Shown here: in pieces, positions 1 through 32,191 of the stretch
How positions within the stretch are numbered: position 1 is the first letter of the stretch
Layout of the letters: each line of letters starts with the position of its first letter
Assembly: GCA_964503955.1 (NCBI GenBank)
Contig: CAZDCG010000001.1
Location: forward strand, 68,962 to 107,803
Length of the DNA stretch: 38,842 nucleotides
Direction: 5' to 3'
From: an uncultured Gammaproteobacteria bacterium
Lineage (GTDB): Bacteria; Patescibacteriota; Patescibacteriia; VMEV01; CAYQCH01
Made by a program: the position numbers and the translations under genes
The notes under the pieces: model-generated
What the model was told of the DNA's origin: nothing
Databases searched by the model: none
What the model saw: the letters and a program-made list of their open reading frames with translations, nothing else

Positions 1-253
1 CAAAAAAAGTTGTGTGGCGGTTATCGCCGATTTCGTCGATATCTTGGGAGCGGAAGCATTTCTGCGAATTGGTCAGGCGCGTCCCTTCCGGATGCTCCTG
101 GCCCAGCAAATACGGAACAAGCGGCTGCATGCCAGAACCGGTAAACAGCGTTGTCGGATCGTTTTCAGGCATGAGCGAAGCGGATGGGATAACGGTGTGT
201 CCTCGTTCTTCAAAAAACTTGAGATAAGCTGATCGGATTTCATTTGTTGACAT
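1..253 (-). CDS. alaS: Alanine--tRNA ligase, N-terminal part (runs off window start)
   Basis: Manual translation from ATG at 253: [84 protein letters not shown], the classic AlaRS N-terminus. Absent from the ORF track because it is truncated. Confidence 0.96.
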
Positions 254-327
254 AGAATGCTGATTTCAGAGATCGATGCTGGTTACAGTATCGAAAATCC
301 CCGCCGCAGTAAAGATCCGAGTATACA

Positions 328-356
328 AGAAAAAAGAGGCGGAGCAAAGCCCCGCC
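328..356 (-). terminator. Intrinsic terminator after the 379-1575 gene
   Basis: Minus strand GGCGGGGC-TTT-GCTCCGCC followed by TCTTTTTTCTT. Confidence 0.7.
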
Positions 357-378
357 CGCTTTCTTGCAAAGAAGCAAG

Positions 379-1575
379 CTATTCGCAAGCCTGATTTGTC
401 TCGTCGATTTCAACGCCGAATTGCTCTTCGGCAACACAAGAGTTTGCGTAGTATTTTCCATCAACGCCGCAAACCGGCTCATACACCTGAATGCAGGCAA
501 TATCATGCGCGGTAATGCCGGACGGAGTCATCTTCATCATGCCAGCTGCATAGTCTCCAACCTCTGAAGGCAGTGAGAAGAGAATGACATAGCTTGCTCC
601 GCCATCAACCGAGTTGTAGAGGTATTCCTGCTGATCTGTAAGCGGAAGCTCCAGTTTATCATAGAGGATTTCATCCTCGGGCGTTCCATAAAATCCATTG
701 GGATACGTCAGATACACTCGTTGATCAATACCGATGGCGGCTGGGCCTGTTTCCGTCACGGGATAGCCGCCCACTTTAGATTTATAGTTCTCAAGAGATG
801 CTTGAAGCGCAAGCATTTCGTTCAGGATTTGCTGCGAGATGGCACCGCCTTCAAAGACCACGTAGAAAGGCGATTGTTCGTATTCCTTTTGAGAGAGCAA
901 TTCCTCTGAAGAGAGATAGTACATGCCTCGTCCGAGATATCCGTACTCTTCCGTGGACAGCGGGCTTGTCAGCTCGAAGCGGTGCAAGGTCACGCCGTCT
1001 TTGCTCATAACTTGGAGCTGCCCCTCTTGAATGGCAGCTTGCACATCTGCATGCTCTGGCTGTTCAAGCGCAAGCTCTGCAAGATCGAGCGTCTCGCTGC
1101 TCTCGATAAAGGATTCGCTTAGATCCATGACGGCAAATGTTTGGTTTGAGATGCCAAGCCCAAGAGCGCGGAATACGCGCAAAGCATCATCCGGACGGCC
1201 GAGGTAATAACGCTGCAAATCAACTGGATTGATATACCATGCCTGCCCCTGGCTTTCTACCTGCAAGAGGATTTTTCCAGCCAGCTGTCGTGAAAGCGCT
1301 TCGTCAAAGTCGCCGGTTTCATTCCCTTCTCCGCGAAGCTTGAACAAATTTTCATCGCTGATGCCAAGCCCCATTTCCGACATGATGTTTAGCGCATCGA
1401 CCGGACGGCCAAGAAAGGAGGCCTTGCCTGTTTCAGGATGCACGTACCAGGCCTCTCCATTGGCCTCTACCTGCAGAACGATCCGCCCTTTCAGGTTTTG
1501 CGGAGTGGCGGCGAATGAACTGAGCGGGACGAGCGAAATAAGAGCAAGGAGCAAAGCGACGAGATTTCTTTTCAT
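379..1575 (-). CDS. Secreted protein: signal peptide, 2 CPR-type LLQVE..GEAWYV repeats, pilin-head-like domain, C-terminal Kazal-like domain
   Basis: Signal peptide MKRNLVALLLALISLVPLSSFAA; tandem ~53-aa repeats (res 28-80, 98-150); LQASLENYKSKVGGYP...YLYNSVDGGASYVILFSL...TPSGI; CIQVYEPVCGVDGKYYANSC. Confidence 0.8.
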   Translation of the reverse strand: MKRNLVALLLALISLVPLSSFAATPQNLKGRIVLQVEANGEAWYVHPETGKASFLGRPVDALNIMSEMGLGISDENLFKLRGEGNETGDFDEALSRQLAGKILLQVESQGQAWYINPVDLQRYYLGRPDDALRVFRALGLGISNQTFAVMDLSESFIESSETLDLAELALEQPEHADVQAAIQEGQLQVMSKDGVTLHRFELTSPLSTEEYGYLGRGMYYLSSEELLSQKEYEQSPFYVVFEGGAISQQILNEMLALQASLENYKSKVGGYPVTETGPAAIGIDQRVYLTYPNGFYGTPEDEILYDKLELPLTDQQEYLYNSVDGGASYVILFSLPSEVGDYAAGMMKMTPSGITAHDIACIQVYEPVCGVDGKYYANSCVAEEQFGVEIDETNQACE

Positions 1576-5902: not shown

Positions 5903-7840
5903 TTAAAGCTGAATAGTTTGTCCTGGTTCAAGCGGCTTTGCCGAGTCCGCATTTGCCGCATTTCCGTTGCGAAGCGGAACAAGCTTTTCTTTCGACGCGC
6001 GCAACGTTACCTCCTCTTGTTGTTTCGGTTTAGACATGCCCGAAGCATCCTCTCGTGCTTTGCGCTGATCTTTTTTCTTCTTCAGACAATTTGAACAGTA
6101 AATTGGTTTATTCGGATCGGGCTCGAAAGGCACCGTATCTTTTATTCCGCACTCATCGCAAACAATCTCCGTCCTCTTTCGTTTCTTTTTGTCTTCACGC
6201 GAGACTTTCTCTCGCGAAGGTTTCGGCTGCACGGGCCGCGATGCGCGGATGGGTTCTGCAGCCTTGTTTGCCGCGGCTTCTTCAGCTGCTTCCAAAGCCT
6301 CTTCCCGGTCCATTTCCCTTTCTGCAGCATCCGATTCGTCGCGCCCGATGATATCACCAAGGTCCACGTCCTGATTCTGCGCAAGCAGCGTAGTTGCCTC
6401 ATTCAACTTCTGAACAATGTCCACCGCCTCCTGATTCCCCAATTGCGCCAGCTTCTCGTATTCAGGCAGAAGTTTTTCGATCTTTTTTATTTTCTTTTTA
6501 TTACGTTTTTTCCTCTTCTTTTCTTCATCTTTGACCCCTTCTTCATCCGGCGTGGCCATGCCGCTCCATTCGCGGATTTCCTGTTCGACTTTTGCCCGAG
6601 GCGACGCGTAATTTGTTCTGGTGTAATCAATAACCTGCTGCATGAAGCCGGTATCGCCCTCAAATGGAGGCAGGCCCTTCGCGCTGAACGGCTCAGACGC
6701 GATGCCGTCGATCATGAGACGCATGTAGCAGTTGTATTTTGGAATATTGACGAGATCGTCTTCTTCGTATTGCGGCGTAAATTCCTTTACCAGCTCTTCC
6801 GCGTCGGTGGCGCCAACACGGAATACAATCATGGTTCCCACATTTCCAAAAACCGCAGGCTTCACAACTTCTCCAAGCTGCTCGATATATTGATGCGCAA
6901 TAATCAGGTTCAAGCGGTATTTTCGAGCTTCTGAAAGGATATTGGCAAAACTGTCGGTTGCGAAATTCTGAAATTCATCAACATACAAATAGAAATCCTT
7001 TCGCTCATGCTCGGGAATATCAACACGGCTCATCGCAGCAAGCTGGATTTTGGTAATCATCATTGCTCCAAGCAAAGCGGCATTGTCTTCCCCGATGCGA
7101 CCTTTGGAGAGATTCAGCAGAATGATTTTCTGATCATCCATTGCCTGACGGATATTGATGGTTGACTGCGTTTGCCCCACGACATTGCGGATCAATGAGC
7201 TCGATAAGAATTGTCCGACCTTATTCTGAATCGGAGAAATCGCTTCCGTGAGGAATTGCTGATTGTATTTGGAGAATTCATCCACCCAGAACGCTTTCAC
7301 GACCGGATCCTGAATCTTTGCGATCACTTTTTTGCGGAAATTATTGTCTACAAACATTCTTGAGATGCCAAGCAGCGTGCTGTCCGGATAATCAAGCAAA
7401 GCAAGAATGACATTGCGCAGCAAATATTCCAGACGAGGCCCCCAGCTGTCCGCCCAGATTTTTTTGAAGACCCCAACAAGCCCTGAAGCTACTAGGTGGC
7501 GGTATTGAGGTTCAACTTTTTCAACAACGTTGAACGCAATGGGAAAATCCAGGTCCGAAGGATTGAAGTAAATAACATCTTTTAGACGATTCTCGGGAAT
7601 CAGCTTGATAACTTTCTCCACAAGGTCGCCATGAGGATCGACCAGAGCAACCCCTTTGCCATTGTACACGTCCTGAATCACCAGATTTTCGATCATGGTG
7701 GATTTGCCCATACCTGTTTTCCCGATCAGGTACATGTGGCGGCGGCGGTCATCGATTTTAATACCAAAACGCTGCCGGGCATTGCGGAAGTTGGTTTCTC
7801 CTAAAAAGGTGATTTCTGGATGAAGTGGAATGCGTGACAT
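5903..7840 (-). CDS. VirD4/TraD/TrwB-like coupling ATPase with C-terminal CxxC-x17-CxxC Zn finger
   Basis: Walker A GKTGMGKST, Walker B LYVDEFQNF, SEARKYRLNLIIAHQY; C-terminal CDEC-x17-CSNC (17 residues counted). Confidence 0.88.
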   Translation of the reverse strand: MSRIPLHPEITFLGETNFRNARQRFGIKIDDRRRHMYLIGKTGMGKSTMIENLVIQDVYNGKGVALVDPHGDLVEKVIKLIPENRLKDVIYFNPSDLDFPIAFNVVEKVEPQYRHLVASGLVGVFKKIWADSWGPRLEYLLRNVILALLDYPDSTLLGISRMFVDNNFRKKVIAKIQDPVVKAFWVDEFSKYNQQFLTEAISPIQNKVGQFLSSSLIRNVVGQTQSTINIRQAMDDQKIILLNLSKGRIGEDNAALLGAMMITKIQLAAMSRVDIPEHERKDFYLYVDEFQNFATDSFANILSEARKYRLNLIIAHQYIEQLGEVVKPAVFGNVGTMIVFRVGATDAEELVKEFTPQYEEDDLVNIPKYNCYMRLMIDGIASEPFSAKGLPPFEGDTGFMQQVIDYTRTNYASPRAKVEQEIREWSGMATPDEEGVKDEEKKRKKRNKKKIKKIEKLLPEYEKLAQLGNQEAVDIVQKLNEATTLLAQNQDVDLGDIIGRDESDAAEREMDREEALEAAEEAAANKAAEPIRASRPVQPKPSREKVSREDKKKRKRTEIVCDECGIKDTVPFEPDPNKPIYCSNCLKKKKDQRKAREDASGMSKPKQQEEVTLRASKEKLVPLRNGNAANADSAKPLEPGQTIQL

Positions 7841-7863: not shown

Positions 7864-9408
7864 TCATGATTCATCTGACGGAGGTTCCTTGCGTTTGGGC
7901 GAACTTGGGATGTCGACATAGCGGACCTGTGAATCATCCACAGATGGAAGCCCCCCTTCATTCTGCTCCTTTAGATCAGCCACGCTTGCCGGTTCAGGCA
8001 GAAGCACAGATCCTCTATCGGATGCCTTCGGTTCGGTCAAAGGCTTGGAGCTTCCAATCTCAAATTCAGTAGCGCCGATATCACCAAGCGGCAGTGTAGA
8101 CGGCGGTTCGCTCTTCTTGGCTCCCGTACGCTTCACAAGCGGCGCGCGGACAGAGGCCATCGGGAAATGATAAATAGTCGCCAGCTCTTCGGTATTGAGC
8201 ACATATCCTCCGCTCGCCTGCGCGGACGAGAGTGATCTTCCGGCATAGGCTTCCATGAACGAATTCTGCCGCAGATAAATACGGGCTTTCTTCAAGGTGT
8301 AATTTGCCTTGGTCCAGGAATGTTTTCCCGGCTTAAACCAGTTGCGGCTATCGTCGTTGAACTGCTTAATGGCGCCCACAACCGGCCCCACGCCGCGAGC
8401 TTTATTGAAAACCTCTTTGCGGCCGACATACACAATGCGCATAAGACACTTATACACCAGCTTCCCGTTTTTTCGTTCCATGTCTTCAAGCAGCTGCTGT
8501 TCACCCGGAGTCAGGCGCTGAAGCAAAGGAGCAGAATCTTCTTTACTCTCATCGCCACCTCCGCCGCCAAGCTCAAGCCCAAGCAAATTGTCCAGCAGCC
8601 CCGTGATCATGAACGGGATATTGAAGAGAAAGCCAAGAATGCCTCCGCGTTTCGGTTCTGGCGATTTTCTGTCGACGATTTTGTCTATTTCCTGCTGCGC
8701 TTCGGCAAGCCAGTCCTCCGCGACAATCGGCTTTGCTAAAATCTGGTACCAGATCTGCTCGCCTTTCCCTATTTTGCTCATGATTTCAAGCAATGCCGCC
8801 ATTGGATCAACCAGTTCACCGCGGACTTTGTCTTCAAAATCCCGATAGGTCTTGATCGGGTACGCATTCGGCCGATGAAGCAGATACTCCATGCCGTACA
8901 TATCCCATTTTTCGTCTGGGTATTGTTTTGGAACATCATCCGTGTAATCGGTAACTTCGCTGATTTCAGCATCCGGATATTGCGCGTAAATGGATGCCTC
9001 TACTAAGTCCCGAAGCGCGTATGGAGCACGAATGATGTACTGGACATACCCTTCTAAACTGACAATTTCAAAGGAAAACCATTCCTGAAATTCCCCTTTC
9101 CAGCGCGCTTCCCACCAGGTTTGCGAACCATGCGCACCGGCAAGCTGATTAAAAATAGCTTCCATGCTTAGCGGTGTCTGCTCGGTATCGCGCGGAACAT
9201 CAACCGCCAGGAATACAAACTTTCTATTCAATGAGTGGTGGATATCAGCCGTGTAATTCTGAAACGCATCCCAGACCTCCATCAACAGAGCGTAAAAAAC
9301 TGGAATCCAGAAAATATTGACGAATAGCAAAAACATGAGTTTCCAGGTTGGCTCCTGAACCCAGGCGATAATCCAATCGGCGGATGTAAAACTCAATAGC
9401 ATATCCAT
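7864..9408 (-). CDS. Conserved CPR membrane protein, partner of the VirD4-like ATPase
   Basis: N-terminal TM, WFSFEIVS..YIIRAP..LVEASIYAQYPDAEISEV, LNTEELATIYHFP; directly upstream of and co-oriented with the ATPase. Confidence 0.65.
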   Translation of the reverse strand: MDMLLSFTSADWIIAWVQEPTWKLMFLLFVNIFWIPVFYALLMEVWDAFQNYTADIHHSLNRKFVFLAVDVPRDTEQTPLSMEAIFNQLAGAHGSQTWWEARWKGEFQEWFSFEIVSLEGYVQYIIRAPYALRDLVEASIYAQYPDAEISEVTDYTDDVPKQYPDEKWDMYGMEYLLHRPNAYPIKTYRDFEDKVRGELVDPMAALLEIMSKIGKGEQIWYQILAKPIVAEDWLAEAQQEIDKIVDRKSPEPKRGGILGFLFNIPFMITGLLDNLLGLELGGGGGDESKEDSAPLLQRLTPGEQQLLEDMERKNGKLVYKCLMRIVYVGRKEVFNKARGVGPVVGAIKQFNDDSRNWFKPGKHSWTKANYTLKKARIYLRQNSFMEAYAGRSLSSAQASGGYVLNTEELATIYHFPMASVRAPLVKRTGAKKSEPPSTLPLGDIGATEFEIGSSKPLTEPKASDRGSVLLPEPASVADLKEQNEGGLPSVDDSQVRYVDIPSSPKRKEPPSDES

Positions 9409-9471: not shown

Positions 9472-9487
9472 AAAGATGTCTTCGGTC

Positions 9488-10585
9488 TTAGGCCGGAAGC
9501 GTATACTTGCCCTCCGCTGTTTTAGCAAAACGGTCTTTATTCATCAATGCCAGGTGAACCGTACTCTTCCCAACGATGCGCTGTTCAAGCACCCGTTTAA
9601 CAATCTCCTCCCTGGTCAGCGGCATTTCAGCTTCCTGCAAGACGCGGGCGATCACGTCGGCAACAACTCCGGGCTCATACCCCCATTCAGCCAGTGCATA
9701 AATTCCCCGTCCGACAAGGACGTATTTTTCATCCAAAATCAGCTCATTGTGCACGGTAGCCGGATACGCCGTTTTATGATCGAACTTCAATTCGTTGATC
9801 TTTGCCGCGATTTCCGTGAAATGGAGCGGCTTTTTCACATGCTTCAAGACCAAATGGATCTTGTCATTCATGCGCTTTGGCGTAATCGTATTCCATTCCG
9901 CGCAGCCCCAATGGCCGAAAATATTTTGCTTGAGCCCGCGGCAAACACGCAGATGCCCGCGAAGACGATTCTCTTCCTGAATATTCAATTTTTCAACCGC
10001 CATATTGACCAGGGTGTCTTCATCAAGAGGCTCGCCATGGCCGGTTACAAGATCCAAAAGCTGGCAAAGGACATCATGCACATGCGTTTCTTCAACCGAT
10101 GCAAGCTTCCAGGAACGATGATATTTATCCGCATGATGCAAGAGGTCGAAATGGTCAGCAAGCAGTTTTTCCAGCATGAACAGAAGAATAGCGCGCGCTA
10201 CCTGGCGCCCAGCCCGCTCTCCCAAAGCAAGGTCAAGCAGGTGGTTTTCCTCAAGGATGCCTCCATGCGAATCAAGCAGCTGGTAGACAATGCTCTCAAC
10301 CGGCTTGAGCAATTCATTGGCATTTCGATGGTTGCGGAGTTTCTTGATACCGCCGGTTTCGATCTGACGGACACGCTCTCGCGTAACGCCAAAGTGTTTT
10401 CCGATGATTTCAAGTGTTTCCGGCTCGCTGCCAAGCAACCCGAAGCGGCGGGTAAGTACCTCGCGTTCGCGTTCATTCAGGTGCTCAAACAGCGCAGATG
10501 CCAAAACATCCGGATCGAAATGGTGCAATTCCTCTGCCTGCTTGTTCTCCAACACCTTATCAAGAATTGATTGCTCGTAGCCCAT
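9488..10585 (-). CDS. Sigma70 region-4 HTH fused to tandem winged-HTH (HARE-HTH/RNAP delta-like) domains
   Basis: [36 protein letters not shown] (sigma r4); C-terminal [19 protein letters not shown] and PLTREEI..GKYTL wHTH-like units; no region 2 recognisable. Confidence 0.75.
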
Positions 10586-11783: not shown

Positions 11784-13886
11784 CTATCCTTTCAGGTTTT
11801 TTCCGCTTGTATAAAGCGGAGTAAATCTACGAATGAAAGACCAACCAAGCACAAAATCCATCAACGACTTCGTCACCACCATGGCGCTGAACATGCTGAC
11901 CATCACACCAAGCGCGAGCGTGACAGCAAACCCCTTGATAAGCGTGGTTCCAAACCAGGCCAGGAAGAAACAAGTGATCAGGGTAGAGATATTGCCATCC
12001 CGGATAGACGGCCAAGCTCGTTTAAACGCCAATGGAATTGCTTCAGCCAGCGCTCTGCCTCTGGCAAGTTCTTCTTTGAACCGCTCAAACACAAGGACAT
12101 TGGCATCAACCGCCATACCAAGAGACAGGATAAAACCGGCGATTCCGGAGAGCGTCAGCGTCACCCCGATAAACTTGAAGACCACCATGGTTGTCAGACC
12201 GTAAACAGCCAGCGCAAGCACGGCCAGCAATCCAAGCAGGCGGTAGTACAAAATCATGAAAACCGCGATAAAGATCAAACCAATGATCCCCGCTTTCATG
12301 CTCTTGGAAAGCGAATCAGCTCCCAAAGTCGCGCCCACGGTTTGCTGCTGCACAAGTTCAACCGTAATCGGCAGAGCTCCATCTTTTAAGCGGCGAGCCA
12401 AATCCTGTGCTTCTTCCGTTGAGAAATTGCCGCTGATGACAGCTTCACCGGTTGTAATCTGCTGCTGAACCGTTGGAATGCTGATTGCCCGGCCATCCAG
12501 ATAAATGGCAATTTCACGGTTTAAGTATCGCTTGGTCAGATCAGAAAAAATCCTGGTTCCTTCTTCGTCAAAGAGAATAGAAACTTGCGGAATCTGGGTT
12601 TGCGGAGAAAAAACGAGCTGAGCGTCAACCACATTCGCCCCCGTTAACCCTGTATTTTTCCATTCTTCCGCAGGCGGGAGAATATCCTCAGCCGTCTGCT
12701 TGTCGAATTGAATACGATGGATCGTAATCTGCTCGAACGGACGCTGATCCCGCTTATAGATCAAATGCCACCCGAACTCCGTTTCAACCGGTTCGGAAAT
12801 CTGTCCTACCTCAAGGGCTTTTGCCGCGGTTTCAAATGATTCAACGGTGGCTGCTGGAGCAAGCCATCCTAGATCCCCGGAATTCTGTGAAGCGGATGGA
12901 TCAGTTGAAAGCGTTTTTGCTTTTTCGCTGAAATTTGCCGTGGTGATTTCATTCGCGATTCCCTGAATTTTCGCCAAAGCTTCATCACGTGAAAGCTGCG
13001 AATCACAAGAAGCGGCACCTGTATAACAAATGAGAAGATGGCTAACGAGCATCTCGGTATCAGCAGCCTGCCGGTCATCCACGCGGACAATTTCGTAGGA
13101 ATTGTCGGTTTCAATGACTTGTGAAACAACGCGTCCGATACGGGTTGCACCGATTCCTTCCACCAGTTCCGGATGGGTGGCATTGGTGATCACTCCCAAA
13201 TCCCCGCCTGAATCACGAGTCGCCAGGTCTTCAGAAGTTTCTTTTGCCACGTCTTCAAATGATTCCTGGCCCGATGTCACGCGGCCATACGCAGCCTGCG
13301 CTTTTTCAAACTGTGTTTTGTTGTAGGCATCGATCTCCTGTTGTTCTTCTTCGGTCAAGGGACGAGGAGGTTCATTGTTCGGTTCACGGAATTCAAGTAC
13401 GGGGGTTTCCCCGATGCGATCGATGGCCTCGTCCACAGCAACGCCTGCTAATTCGACAACAAGGCGGCTATTTCCCGCAACCTGGACAAGCGGTTCTGCC
13501 ACGCCAAGCGCGTTAACACGGCGTTCAATGCGGTCGCGCAATCGCGCGATTGCCTCAGCAGCATCATCTTCAGGTCCAAGCTCTTCGATTTTCGCTTCGT
13601 AAACGAGGTGCGCTCCTCCCTGTAAATCAAGCCCAAGGTTGAACGGTTTTTCTGAAACCGTGTCGAATCGGTACCCTGAAACCAGCGGAAGCTTTGACAA
13701 TCCATTGTTGACGGAGCCGATCACCTGATTATACCCCGATGGATAAACCAAACTCGCACAAAAAACCGTCAGCAAGAGGATACCCAGCATACTCCAGCGC
13801 ACTTTTGCGCGTGGCGACGGATCAATGACGGCATTCCAAACCTTCTTGAACGGATGAGACAGCACCCTTTTCATTTTCTCAAACAT
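11784..13886 (-). CDS. secD: Protein translocase subunit SecD with two inserted parvulin (PpiC-type) domains
   Basis: LGLDLQGG, RRVNALGVAEP, VDANVLVFERFKEE; insert res ~171-407 with two F..A...S.D.....GDLG parvulin motifs and SEPVETEFGWHLI. Confidence 0.95.
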   Translation of the reverse strand: MFEKMKRVLSHPFKKVWNAVIDPSPRAKVRWSMLGILLLTVFCASLVYPSGYNQVIGSVNNGLSKLPLVSGYRFDTVSEKPFNLGLDLQGGAHLVYEAKIEELGPEDDAAEAIARLRDRIERRVNALGVAEPLVQVAGNSRLVVELAGVAVDEAIDRIGETPVLEFREPNNEPPRPLTEEEQQEIDAYNKTQFEKAQAAYGRVTSGQESFEDVAKETSEDLATRDSGGDLGVITNATHPELVEGIGATRIGRVVSQVIETDNSYEIVRVDDRQAADTEMLVSHLLICYTGAASCDSQLSRDEALAKIQGIANEITTANFSEKAKTLSTDPSASQNSGDLGWLAPAATVESFETAAKALEVGQISEPVETEFGWHLIYKRDQRPFEQITIHRIQFDKQTAEDILPPAEEWKNTGLTGANVVDAQLVFSPQTQIPQVSILFDEEGTRIFSDLTKRYLNREIAIYLDGRAISIPTVQQQITTGEAVISGNFSTEEAQDLARRLKDGALPITVELVQQQTVGATLGADSLSKSMKAGIIGLIFIAVFMILYYRLLGLLAVLALAVYGLTTMVVFKFIGVTLTLSGIAGFILSLGMAVDANVLVFERFKEELARGRALAEAIPLAFKRAWPSIRDGNISTLITCFFLAWFGTTLIKGFAVTLALGVMVSMFSAMVVTKSLMDFVLGWSFIRRFTPLYTSGKNLKG

Positions 13887-30667: not shown

Positions 30668-30692
30668 ACAAAAGGAGCCGAAATGGCTCCTT
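30668..30692 (-). terminator. Terminator after the 30717-32132 gene
   Basis: AAGGAGCC-ATTTC-GGCTCCTT-TTGTT on the minus strand. Confidence 0.7.
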
Positions 30693-30716: not shown

Positions 30717-32132
30717 TTACTGCAGATTGCCGACGCGCACAATGCCTTCCGGGCGTGCTTCATACACACCAGGTGTCAGCACGTCTTTGTAATCACGGAA
30801 GGATCCGTACAGGGTGAAGGTAATCGCGTAGCTTTCGCCGCCAATGCGGTTATCGTACATCAGCTTGGTCGTTGGTCCAGGGTTTGGAATATTGTCCAGG
30901 TATACCGTGCCGTACTTCTCGCCAAACGCCCCATATTGGGATAGCTGGCGGTAAGAACCTTCGCCAAGGGAAATTGCATGGTTTTGCGGAATCGGATACC
31001 CATGGACTTCCGCCACATATTTGGACAAAGCGTCTTGAATTGAACGAACAATACCGACAATGCGGGCGGCCTCGACGTTCACGTCCAAGGTTGACGGATC
31101 CCATGTTTGGTTGCCTGAATCGACAACAGTACCGCGATTGGCAAATTCCTGGTTATTCATCAGGCCTTCCATCGCGCTCCAATGATAGGTTCCCTTTTCC
31201 AAAAGGCCATGCTCAGCCGTTTGGATATCGGACGGCAAATCAAAATGCATCAGCAAATTGCCATTTGATTCGATCTCTGCCTGGAAGTGGTCAAAGTAGA
31301 ACTTGAAGAATTCCATGGAAAGATCTGACCACACCCAATAGTGGTCCGGGCGATTGGAGAGCGTGAATCCGCTTGCGTCCATGTAAATCGGCTGATTCCA
31401 ACCAAACACATTGGCAAACCATTTGATTTCAGGAAAGTAGCCGTGATCGCGGTGAAACTGCTTATACGCAGAGCTAAGACTTGAAACAAATTCCCAGGCA
31501 AGCTGCGCATTCGCGAACTCAACGGAACCGAGGTTCGCCTTCACTTCGTCGATATTAATGCGAACCGGCTGCGGCACAGACGGTGCGGACGGGGTTTCGA
31601 CAACGACGGGAGCTGAAGCTGGAGGAGTATTCACGACCGGTGTTGCCGGCACAAGCTGAAGATGAGAAAGCGCGATTGCATTGATATCAGCAAGCGTTGC
31701 TCCAAGCGCAATCTTCTTTACATGCTCGTAGGTTGATTCTCCCGTACCAAGATAGTAGCGGAAACCGTCATGCGGGTTCACAAACCAGACTTCACCCTTT
31801 TGCTCTACGGCGAGAAGGAATTGTCCTTTCAGCCTGTCGCGCAAAACGGCATTCTCCCTTCCAAGCGCCTGTCCCGGCTGGGGAAGCTTGTTAAGATTTT
31901 CATTGCTGATGCCGATCATATTGTCTTTGATCAGCTTCCAGGCAGCCTGCGCGTGAGCGACATGAACGCGCTCGCCGGTTTCAGGCAGGACATACCAGAT
32001 CTTGCCCCGGTCCTGGACCGAAAGCAGGAAATACCCCTTCAGGCGTTCAGCCTGCGAGGTCTGTGCGAATGCGGGCAGTGCTGAGGTAAGACCCGCAGCC
32101 ATTGCAAGCATTGCCAATAGTGCTTTTCGCAT
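30717..32132 (-). CDS. Secreted protein: signal peptide, 2 CPR-type repeats, Pro-rich linker, two pilin-head-like domains
   Basis: Signal peptide ending AFA; LKGYFLLSVQDRGKIWYV and LKGQFLLAVEQKGEVWFV repeats; SAYKQFHRDHGYFP and IQDALSKYVAEVHGYP...SYAITFTL...RPEGI. Confidence 0.75.
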   Translation of the reverse strand: MRKALLAMLAMAAGLTSALPAFAQTSQAERLKGYFLLSVQDRGKIWYVLPETGERVHVAHAQAAWKLIKDNMIGISNENLNKLPQPGQALGRENAVLRDRLKGQFLLAVEQKGEVWFVNPHDGFRYYLGTGESTYEHVKKIALGATLADINAIALSHLQLVPATPVVNTPPASAPVVVETPSAPSVPQPVRINIDEVKANLGSVEFANAQLAWEFVSSLSSAYKQFHRDHGYFPEIKWFANVFGWNQPIYMDASGFTLSNRPDHYWVWSDLSMEFFKFYFDHFQAEIESNGNLLMHFDLPSDIQTAEHGLLEKGTYHWSAMEGLMNNQEFANRGTVVDSGNQTWDPSTLDVNVEAARIVGIVRSIQDALSKYVAEVHGYPIPQNHAISLGEGSYRQLSQYGAFGEKYGTVYLDNIPNPGPTTKLMYDNRIGGESYAITFTLYGSFRDYKDVLTPGVYEARPEGIVRVGNLQ

Positions 32133-32162: not shown

Positions 32163-32191
32163 ACTTTAGCACAAAATCTGGAATTAGTCAA
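32163..32191 (-). promoter_or_regulatory. Sigma70 promoter for the 30717-32132 gene
   Basis: TTGACT-17-TAAAGT with extended TG. Confidence 0.7.

Follow-up and report, generated by a model that had tools for sequence, protein, structure and literature searches.

A two-copy repeat module of exported Patescibacteria proteins and its occurrence with a stem-less pilin-type head

We analyzed a 38,842-nt stretch of DNA (the window; positions 68,962 to 107,803 of contig CAZDCG010000001.1) with the focus on the gene at 30717..32132 of the minus strand, whose 471-aa product is called P0001, and on a paralogous gene at 379..1575, also of the minus strand, whose 398-aa product is called P0002. Both proteins start with a pair of repeats directly behind a signal peptide. 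This repeat pair is shown here to be an autonomous, uncatalogued two-copy module, which thousands of exported proteins with unrelated extracellular cargo carry at their N or C terminus. At the opposite end of P0001, profile comparison shows homology between the last 125 residues and the globular head of Patescibacteria-type type IV prepilins, over the full extent of that head from helix alpha1C onwards.

A sequence-only reading of the window had placed both open reading frames (ORFs) and quoted two motifs from P0001; the positions proved to be exact and both motifs were found in the translation. The same reading had given the two proteins a common N-terminal design of a signal peptide and two repeats of about 53 aa. 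BLASTP aligns residues 1-157 of each protein with 35% identity (E 6e-24), in agreement with such a design, and the two repeats are indeed present in both proteins, with a unit length of about 58 aa rather than 53 aa. In P0001, repeat 1 covers residues 28-88 (31869..32051, minus strand, as are all features of the two genes given below) and repeat 2 covers residues 95-153 (31674..31850), with i-E values of 7.5e-28 and 2.4e-29 against a repeat hidden Markov model (HMM). The P0002 signal peptide (residues 1-22) and paired module (residues 25-149) are encoded by 1129..1575, as found by BLASTP and by the repeat HMM (i-E 3.9e-22 and 5.1e-23). In a Smith-Waterman comparison the internal repeat of P0001 scores 103 vs. 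21.6 +/- 4.4 for 1000 shuffles (z 18.6), and the shuffle test for P0002 gives z 26.7; the internal repeat was not reported in a BLASTP self-comparison of P0001.

The module does not resemble anything in the domain and structure collections searched. P0001 as a single sequence has no relevant match in Pfam, NCBIfam, or the Protein Data Bank (PDB). Over residues 1-160 there is no Pfam or NCBIfam match at E ≤ 1, and the module profile found zero matches at E ≤ 10 among PDB sequences. An AlphaFold2 (AF2) model built from a module-only alignment of 46 sequences has a pLDDT of 95 and a pTM of 0.86, and each repeat in it follows the topology beta-beta-beta-alpha-beta-alpha. Foldseek found no counterpart of this model in the PDB (best E 0.66, probability ≤ 0.11, TM ≤ 0.23) or in BFVD (best E 0.1). 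Four candidate relationships were tried, and none of them is supported. PUR repeats were the top Foldseek match of the full P0001 model (E 0.36, TM 0.19, rmsd 17 A), but this likeness, which is gone with the high-confidence module model, was rejected. The repeats of EccB, from ESX/type VII secretion, are also small beta-rich units with a helix that come in pairs, and EccB5 chains appear in the Foldseek list at ranks 31 and 48 (E 1.6-2.3, probability 0.02, TM 0.18), with no sequence match. Phage cell-wall-binding domains gave nothing significant in BFVD, and a helix-hairpin-helix reading of the segment GLGITNADL was ruled out, GLGI being modelled as a strand. The sequence-only reading had known of no functional description of such proteins, and we likewise found none in Pfam, NCBIfam, the PDB, or the literature searched, either for the module or for Sec-exported pilin heads.

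Nine full-length relatives of P0001 were found and aligned, and further ones were obtained by a profile search of 1.84 billion cluster representatives. In that search the family profile matched 3,677 clusters at E ≤ 1e-3, 3,265 at E ≤ 1e-10, and 1,725 at E ≤ 1e-30, and nearly all of the best 150 matches are through profile positions 1-160 only. Judged from these matches, the module is present in at least 1,725 protein clusters and possibly in up to about 3,700. A single-repeat HMM detects exactly two copies in 150 out of 155 proteins. The pair is N-terminal, directly behind the signal peptide, in 109 proteins, C-terminal in 42, and internal in 3, and a signal-peptide-like start was seen in 107 of the 110 proteins with an N-terminal module. 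The two copies are separated in 30 proteins by a linker of about 60 aa of the DxDxDG (TSP3) type. The cargo catalogue based on an HMM of the repeat, which the sequence-only reading had proposed, contains diverse and unrelated extracellular domains attached to an N- or C-terminal pair. Among 146 module proteins Pfam assigned TSP3_bac (21), CAP (10), Trypsin_2 (6), Kazal (5), purple acid phosphatase (5), and fn3 (4), and further cargo consists of subtilase S8, M23, S11 DD-carboxypeptidase, beta-lactamase-like, GH6, SpaA-like, Ig-like, plastocyanin-like, and SH3 domains. An anchor or docking unit, as had been suggested for the repeat, would be expected to occur promiscuously at the ends of exported proteins, as this module does.

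One genome per GTDB species was scanned with an alignment of eight module sequences as the query, and at least 585 loci with the module were found; the lineage, copy-number, and neighbor figures that follow refer to the best 80 of these. The lineage names in the titles are Uhr-, Falkow-, Doudna-, Kerfeld-, and Buchananbacteria, Parcubacteria, Paceibacter, and one Saccharibacteria, all of them Patescibacteria groups. Another title is attached to 25 of the 80 loci, which belong to third-party metagenome-assembled genomes (MAGs) titled "uncultured Gammaproteobacteria", and several other titles say just "bacterium" or "metagenome". One such third-party MAG (L081, CAYGRO010000003.1, titled "uncultured Gammaproteobacteria bacterium") holds a syntenic rpsB-tsf-X-gap orthologue of the P0001 gene, X being that orthologue. 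The "uncultured Gammaproteobacteria" label is doubtful because an assembly that bears it contains a syntenic orthologue from a Patescibacteria-type window. All 86 module ORFs in the 80 loci carry two repeat copies. Pilin-head cargo is present in one of the 86 (locus L077), and no prepilin gene was found within 3 kb of the 80 loci. The sequence-only reading had pictured a modular surface system displaying pilin heads; the module is modular and widespread as supposed, but it seldom carries pilin heads (in about 1 of 86 cases in an unbiased sample), and therefore the "system" is the module and not a pilin-specific device.

The C-terminal domain of P0001 (residues 347-471; 30720..31094) was identified as a pilin head by profile search, hhalign, PDB profile search, and Foldseek. 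The profile A4, built from 22 C-terminal domains, was run against 5.8 billion proteins with lengths limited to those of free pilins; it returned three proteins only, all of which are prepilins (E 3.6e-13, 3.1e-10, and 1.3e-4). These prepilins (P0158-P0160) are 142-170 aa long and have GFTLIELLVVIAIIG leaders; Pfam matches N_methyl (PF07963) and T2SSG (PF08334) in them, the latter above the cut-off in one of the three. In hhalign, A4 and the prepilins match with a probability of 99.05% and E 2.1e-18 over 112 columns, and the alignment spans prepilin residues 59-170, i.e., from right after the hydrophobic half of alpha1 to the C terminus. The domain consists of an alpha1C-like helix (residues 351-376), a YP loop, and a beta-sheet; in the AF2 model of P0001 (pLDDT 72.8) it appears as a 26-residue helix at the same residues followed by strands. 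What it has in common with the globular head of Patescibacteria-type type IV prepilins and of GspG-like pseudopilins of the type II secretion system (T2SS) is the amphipathic alpha1C with the motif (R)D.KR..D..QIQ..LE.Y....G.YP and, past alpha1C, the alpha-beta loop and a C-terminal sheet with Y.(I/L)TF.L...G. The YP loop, G, and Y positions are invariant or nearly so across the C-domain family. In the PDB profile search with the C domain, eight GspG entries recur on the alpha1C-"YP" segment, each at E 0.2-1.3, and the best-probability Foldseek matches of the full P0001 model are PulG and the type IV pilins 4d40 and 4bhr (E 0.7-2). Module-borne heads of other lineages score above the Pfam T2SSG cut-off without N_methyl (P0076 with 29 bits and P0161 with 22.3 bits). 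The C domains of both P0001 and P0002 are homologous to the prepilin head and begin where the polymerization helix would end.

The N terminus of P0001 is that of a Sec substrate. Its Sec-type signal peptide (residues 1-23, MRKALLAMLAMAAGLTSALPAFA with cleavage before Q; 32064..32132) has a basic n-region, a hydrophobic core with a mean Kyte-Doolittle value of 2.4, and an AxA site. A basic head and a hydrophobic core are present in both proteins, followed by AxA-type cleavage sites (AFA before Q in P0001, SFA before A in P0002). Neither P0001 nor P0002 has a Cys lipobox or a transmembrane-like segment beyond the signal peptide. The sequence-only reading had seen no class III (prepilin) signal, and a G-F-T-L-I-E type motif (G-1, F/M+1, E+5) is in fact absent from P0001, P0002, and the whole six-frame translation of the window; none was found in the module proteins either. 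A hidden class III leader upstream of the P0001 ATG is excluded because the open frame between the upstream stop and the ATG adds just 11 codons. The hydrophobic alpha1N of about 25 residues, which forms the filament core of pilins, is absent from P0001, and the prepilin alignment begins past the hydrophobic segment. Without a class III leader and alpha1N, the features that define pilins, P0001 can therefore neither be processed by prepilin peptidase nor enter a filament core, and cannot be a pilus subunit, which bears out the earlier expectation that it should not polymerize in the usual way. Unlike prepilins, P0001 has no G-1/F+1/E+5 signature and carries a cleavable Sec signal plus about 320 residues of other domains, and unlike type IV pilin or pseudopilin genes its gene has no pilus-gene neighborhood.

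Two regions lie between the module and the head of P0001. A Pro/Thr/Val/Ala-rich linker (residues 160-190; 31563..31655) is marked by a pLDDT below 50 and the poorest conservation. It is followed by a middle domain, M (residues 195-340; 31113..31550), which was delimited by AF2 topology, its duplication in orthologues, and hhalign. M is modelled as a 22-residue helix ending in a GYFP loop and then a beta-meander, and it is doubled in orthologues of 594-615 aa. An hhalign comparison of M with the C domain gave E 1.6e-4 and a probability of 51% over 104 collinear columns, and with a broad pilin-head HMM several orthologues gave matches in their M domains (1e-3 to 5e-3). The M profile gave no signal when compared with prepilins, its database search returned no prepilins and just one fragment of its own family, and M and the C domain show no similarity at the single-sequence level (z -0.4). 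M is thus possibly a degenerate pilin head. Two pilin heads had been proposed for P0001: the C-terminal unit is a true homologue (hhalign 99%), but the first unit (SAYKQFHRDHGYFP) is only a weak relative at the profile level.

The cargo of P0002 had been taken to differ from that of P0001. A second BLASTP segment joins residues 287-465 of P0001 with residues 190-355 of P0002 (25% identity, E 3e-10). The two proteins are homologous at both ends and therefore share part of their cargo; BLASTP and the C-domain and M HMMs agree that both have the pilin head and some of the domain before it, so the notion of different cargo does not hold. The P0002 head comprises residues 241-355 (511..855; C-domain HMM i-E 7e-40, BLASTP to P0001 E 3e-10), and before it lies a remnant of the M beta-meander at residues 193-235 (M HMM positions 96-139, 7.7e-6). 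P0002 retains just the last third of the M domain, then a complete head, then a Kazal-type domain. The latter (residues 357-398; 382..507) had been recognized from the sequence and is supported by Pfam Kazal_1 (25.2 bits vs. a cut-off of 21, E 1.7e-5) and by PDB Kazal inhibitors (E 1.2e-4). It shares the C2-X7-C3-X6-Y-X3-C4 core with Kazal-type inhibitors; unlike these it is fused behind a pilin head on what would be a bacterial surface chassis and has four of the usual six Cys (361, 369, 380, and 397), and therefore two disulfides at most. The Kazal core CIQVYEPVCGVDGKYYANSC is closely similar to the canonical ovomucoid-type reactive loop. As read from the motif, Gln363 is the predicted P1 residue.

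At locus L077, from a different lineage, the ORF 73-1569 (plus strand) encodes a signal peptide, a repeat, a TSP3 linker, a repeat, a helical linker, and two near-canonical Patescibacteria pilin heads. Each of these heads begins at RD(S/K)KR(I/V)SD, the exact end point of the would-be alpha1N. The architecture of module plus pilin head recurs beyond the P0001 family.

The P0001 gene lies between tsf and gap, with rpsB, tsf, gap, hisS, and eno as neighbors, and the order rpsB-tsf-X-gap-hisS-SIMPL-eno is conserved in three independent relative assemblies. From the rpsB-tsf-X-gap synteny in three relatives we conclude that the gene is real and vertically kept, and a gene-fusion or assembly artefact is ruled out by intact syntenic orthologues in independent assemblies. 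In the three relatives X is 34-48% identical vs. 55-84% for the neighbors; such faster evolution of X, as judged from the sequence identities, would be usual for exposed proteins. Within the orthologues the identity is 60.6% in the module, 43-45% in the M domain and the head, and 30% in the linker, so the alignment has a conserved base and variable tips. A promoter-like site (TTGACT-17-TAAAGT with TG; 32163..32191, minus strand) is located about 30 nt upstream of the P0001 ATG, and a terminator-like hairpin (30672..30692, minus strand) 25 nt past its stop codon, both found by consensus scan only; another terminator-like hairpin, again only a consensus match, follows tsf inside the 112-nt spacer. 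Two contigs from a compost run flagged transcriptomic are about 99% identical to window positions 31476-32060, the 5' half of the P0001 gene, and the run covers the gene about as deeply as tsf and rpsB. Because DNA carry-over is possible, the contigs hint at expression no more than weakly.

Several other genes of the window, all on the minus strand, were noted. The gene at 11787-13886 encodes a 700-aa SecD homologue in which the first P1 part and the P1 head are separated by an inserted peptidyl-prolyl isomerase domain of the PPIC type (Pfam Rotamase, E 1.6e-32, residues 283-379); the protein is an export-motor/foldase fusion. The gene at 5906-7840 encodes a coupling ATPase of the TrwB/TraG type whose C terminus bears a treble-clef zinc finger (PF10412, PF12696, PF23477), and the adjoining gene at 7867-9408 a 514-aa protein without a Pfam match; these two may belong to a Patescibacteria apparatus for type IV secretion or DNA transfer. 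The 365-aa protein encoded at 9491-10585 combines sigma-70 region 4 (residues 33-85) with HARE-HTH (residues 243-298), and an equally long ORF lies opposite to it (9476-10570, plus strand).

Two kinds of known proteins are useful for comparison. In PilJ of Clostridioides difficile the second, stem-less pilin head is an exposed interaction surface on the pilus (PMC9556784). P0001 resembles PilJ in its helix-less pilin-head-like domain and may also have two heads in tandem; in contrast, PilJ is incorporated into the pilus and has a true pilin domain at its N terminus, whereas P0001 and P0002 are Sec substrates without such a domain. The non-covalent cell-wall anchors of monoderm bacteria (LysM, SLH, CWB2, SH3b, PG_binding_1) are treated in a review (PMC5817068). 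Like LysM/SLH/CWB2-type anchors, the module is a short repeated terminal unit with flexible or Ca-binding linkers, very diverse exported cargo, and several paralogues per genome. Unlike them it has a copy number fixed at two, and unlike the wall anchors LysM, SLH, SH3b, CWB, PG_binding, and SPOR it matches no Pfam or NCBIfam model and its fold has no PDB or BFVD match.

With some reserve we lean towards the view that P0001 is exported, does not polymerize, and probably stays attached to the cell envelope, with its pilin head as a binding surface. A role of the module as a cell-envelope retention unit fits the architecture pattern. P0001 would be exported by Sec and cleaved by signal peptidase I. 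The paired module would then bind a conserved envelope polymer (peptidoglycan, a wall glycopolymer, or the S-layer) and retain the protein as LysM, SLH, or CWB2 do in other monoderms. The wall would be crossed by the Pro/Thr-rich linker, and the fast-evolving M domain and pilin head would form an adhesin-like face for ligand binding that belongs to the cell body and not to a pilus. In P0002 the same chassis would present a Kazal-type protease inhibitor. A number of points weigh against this view. A binding partner is presumed for both the module and the head, and the anchor role is argued from architecture statistics because the module model has no structural match. The signal peptides were called by a heuristic and not by a trained predictor. 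The Foldseek support for the pilin fold is weak by itself, its E values of 0.7-2 being not significant alone. The neighbors at the P0001 locus are housekeeping genes, with no pilus, T2SS, or wall genes linked. All function is inferred, and the finding owes its strength to how large and how structurally new the module family is. A much broader proposal would make the module a phylum-wide, structurally new non-covalent display system of Patescibacteria, the counterpart of LysM/SLH/CWB2, on which some lineages mount pilin heads as cell-body adhesins, host attachment having passed from a retractile pilus to a short-range, non-polymerizing copy of the same binding domain; we regard this proposal as doubtful.

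Other explanations have to be weighed against envelope retention of a binding head. The module could be a host-targeting device that binds the wall of the bacterium on which an epibiont lives and delivers cargo such as proteases, M23, CAP, and pilin heads. Many of the cargo domains are of a lytic or host-interaction kind (S8, Trypsin_2, M23, CAP, GH6), and cultivated Patescibacteria are described in one source as obligate episymbionts (10.1101/2024.11.25.624915), both of which would agree with host targeting. The cargo also contains own-wall maintenance enzymes, however (S11 DD-carboxypeptidase, beta-lactamase-like), and the module is the slowest-evolving part across lineages, which fits a conserved self-ligand, although the same would be seen with a conserved peptidoglycan ligand of the host. 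We consider host targeting unlikely. Still less likely, in our view, is that the head works with a type IV pilus as a wall-anchored collar or docking site, as a tip- or shaft-binding accessory, or as a decoy for pilus-specific phages or ligands. The head is near enough to real Patescibacteria pilins to make head-head contacts conceivable, and PilJ provides the precedent of a stem-less second head that serves as an interaction surface on the pilus (PMC9556784), but neither the P0001 locus nor the 80 module loci are linked to pilin or pilus genes, and known incorporation into the pilus needs the alpha1N that P0001 lacks.

The pilin-like domains might instead be inert spacers, a stable fold reused as a stalk, in which case the P0002 head would only set the Kazal inhibitor off the wall. 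Consistent with a stalk, the P0002 head stands between the module and the Kazal domain, and the number of M domains varies from one to two among orthologues. The P0001 head, however, is terminal with nothing past it to display, and the YP loop, G, and Y are invariant or nearly so across the family, which speaks against a mere spacer. We think the spacer explanation is improbable.

Host recognition by ultra-small episymbiotic bacteria is ascribed mainly to type IV pili in one source (10.1101/2024.11.25.624915). A Sec-exported, filament-free pilin head, if it is displayed, would be a second and unrecognized use of the pilin binding fold. What appears to be new in P0001, as read from its sequence, is the joining of a wall-anchored-type surface protein to a pilin-fold binding domain, each kind being already known. 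The paired module is among the commonest unassigned exported modules of the Patescibacteria radiation and has a confident predicted fold with no PDB match. Knowledge of its ligand would allow much of the surface proteome predicted for these uncultivated bacteria to be annotated, and it would offer a handle for surface display or for the labelling or capture of these cells.

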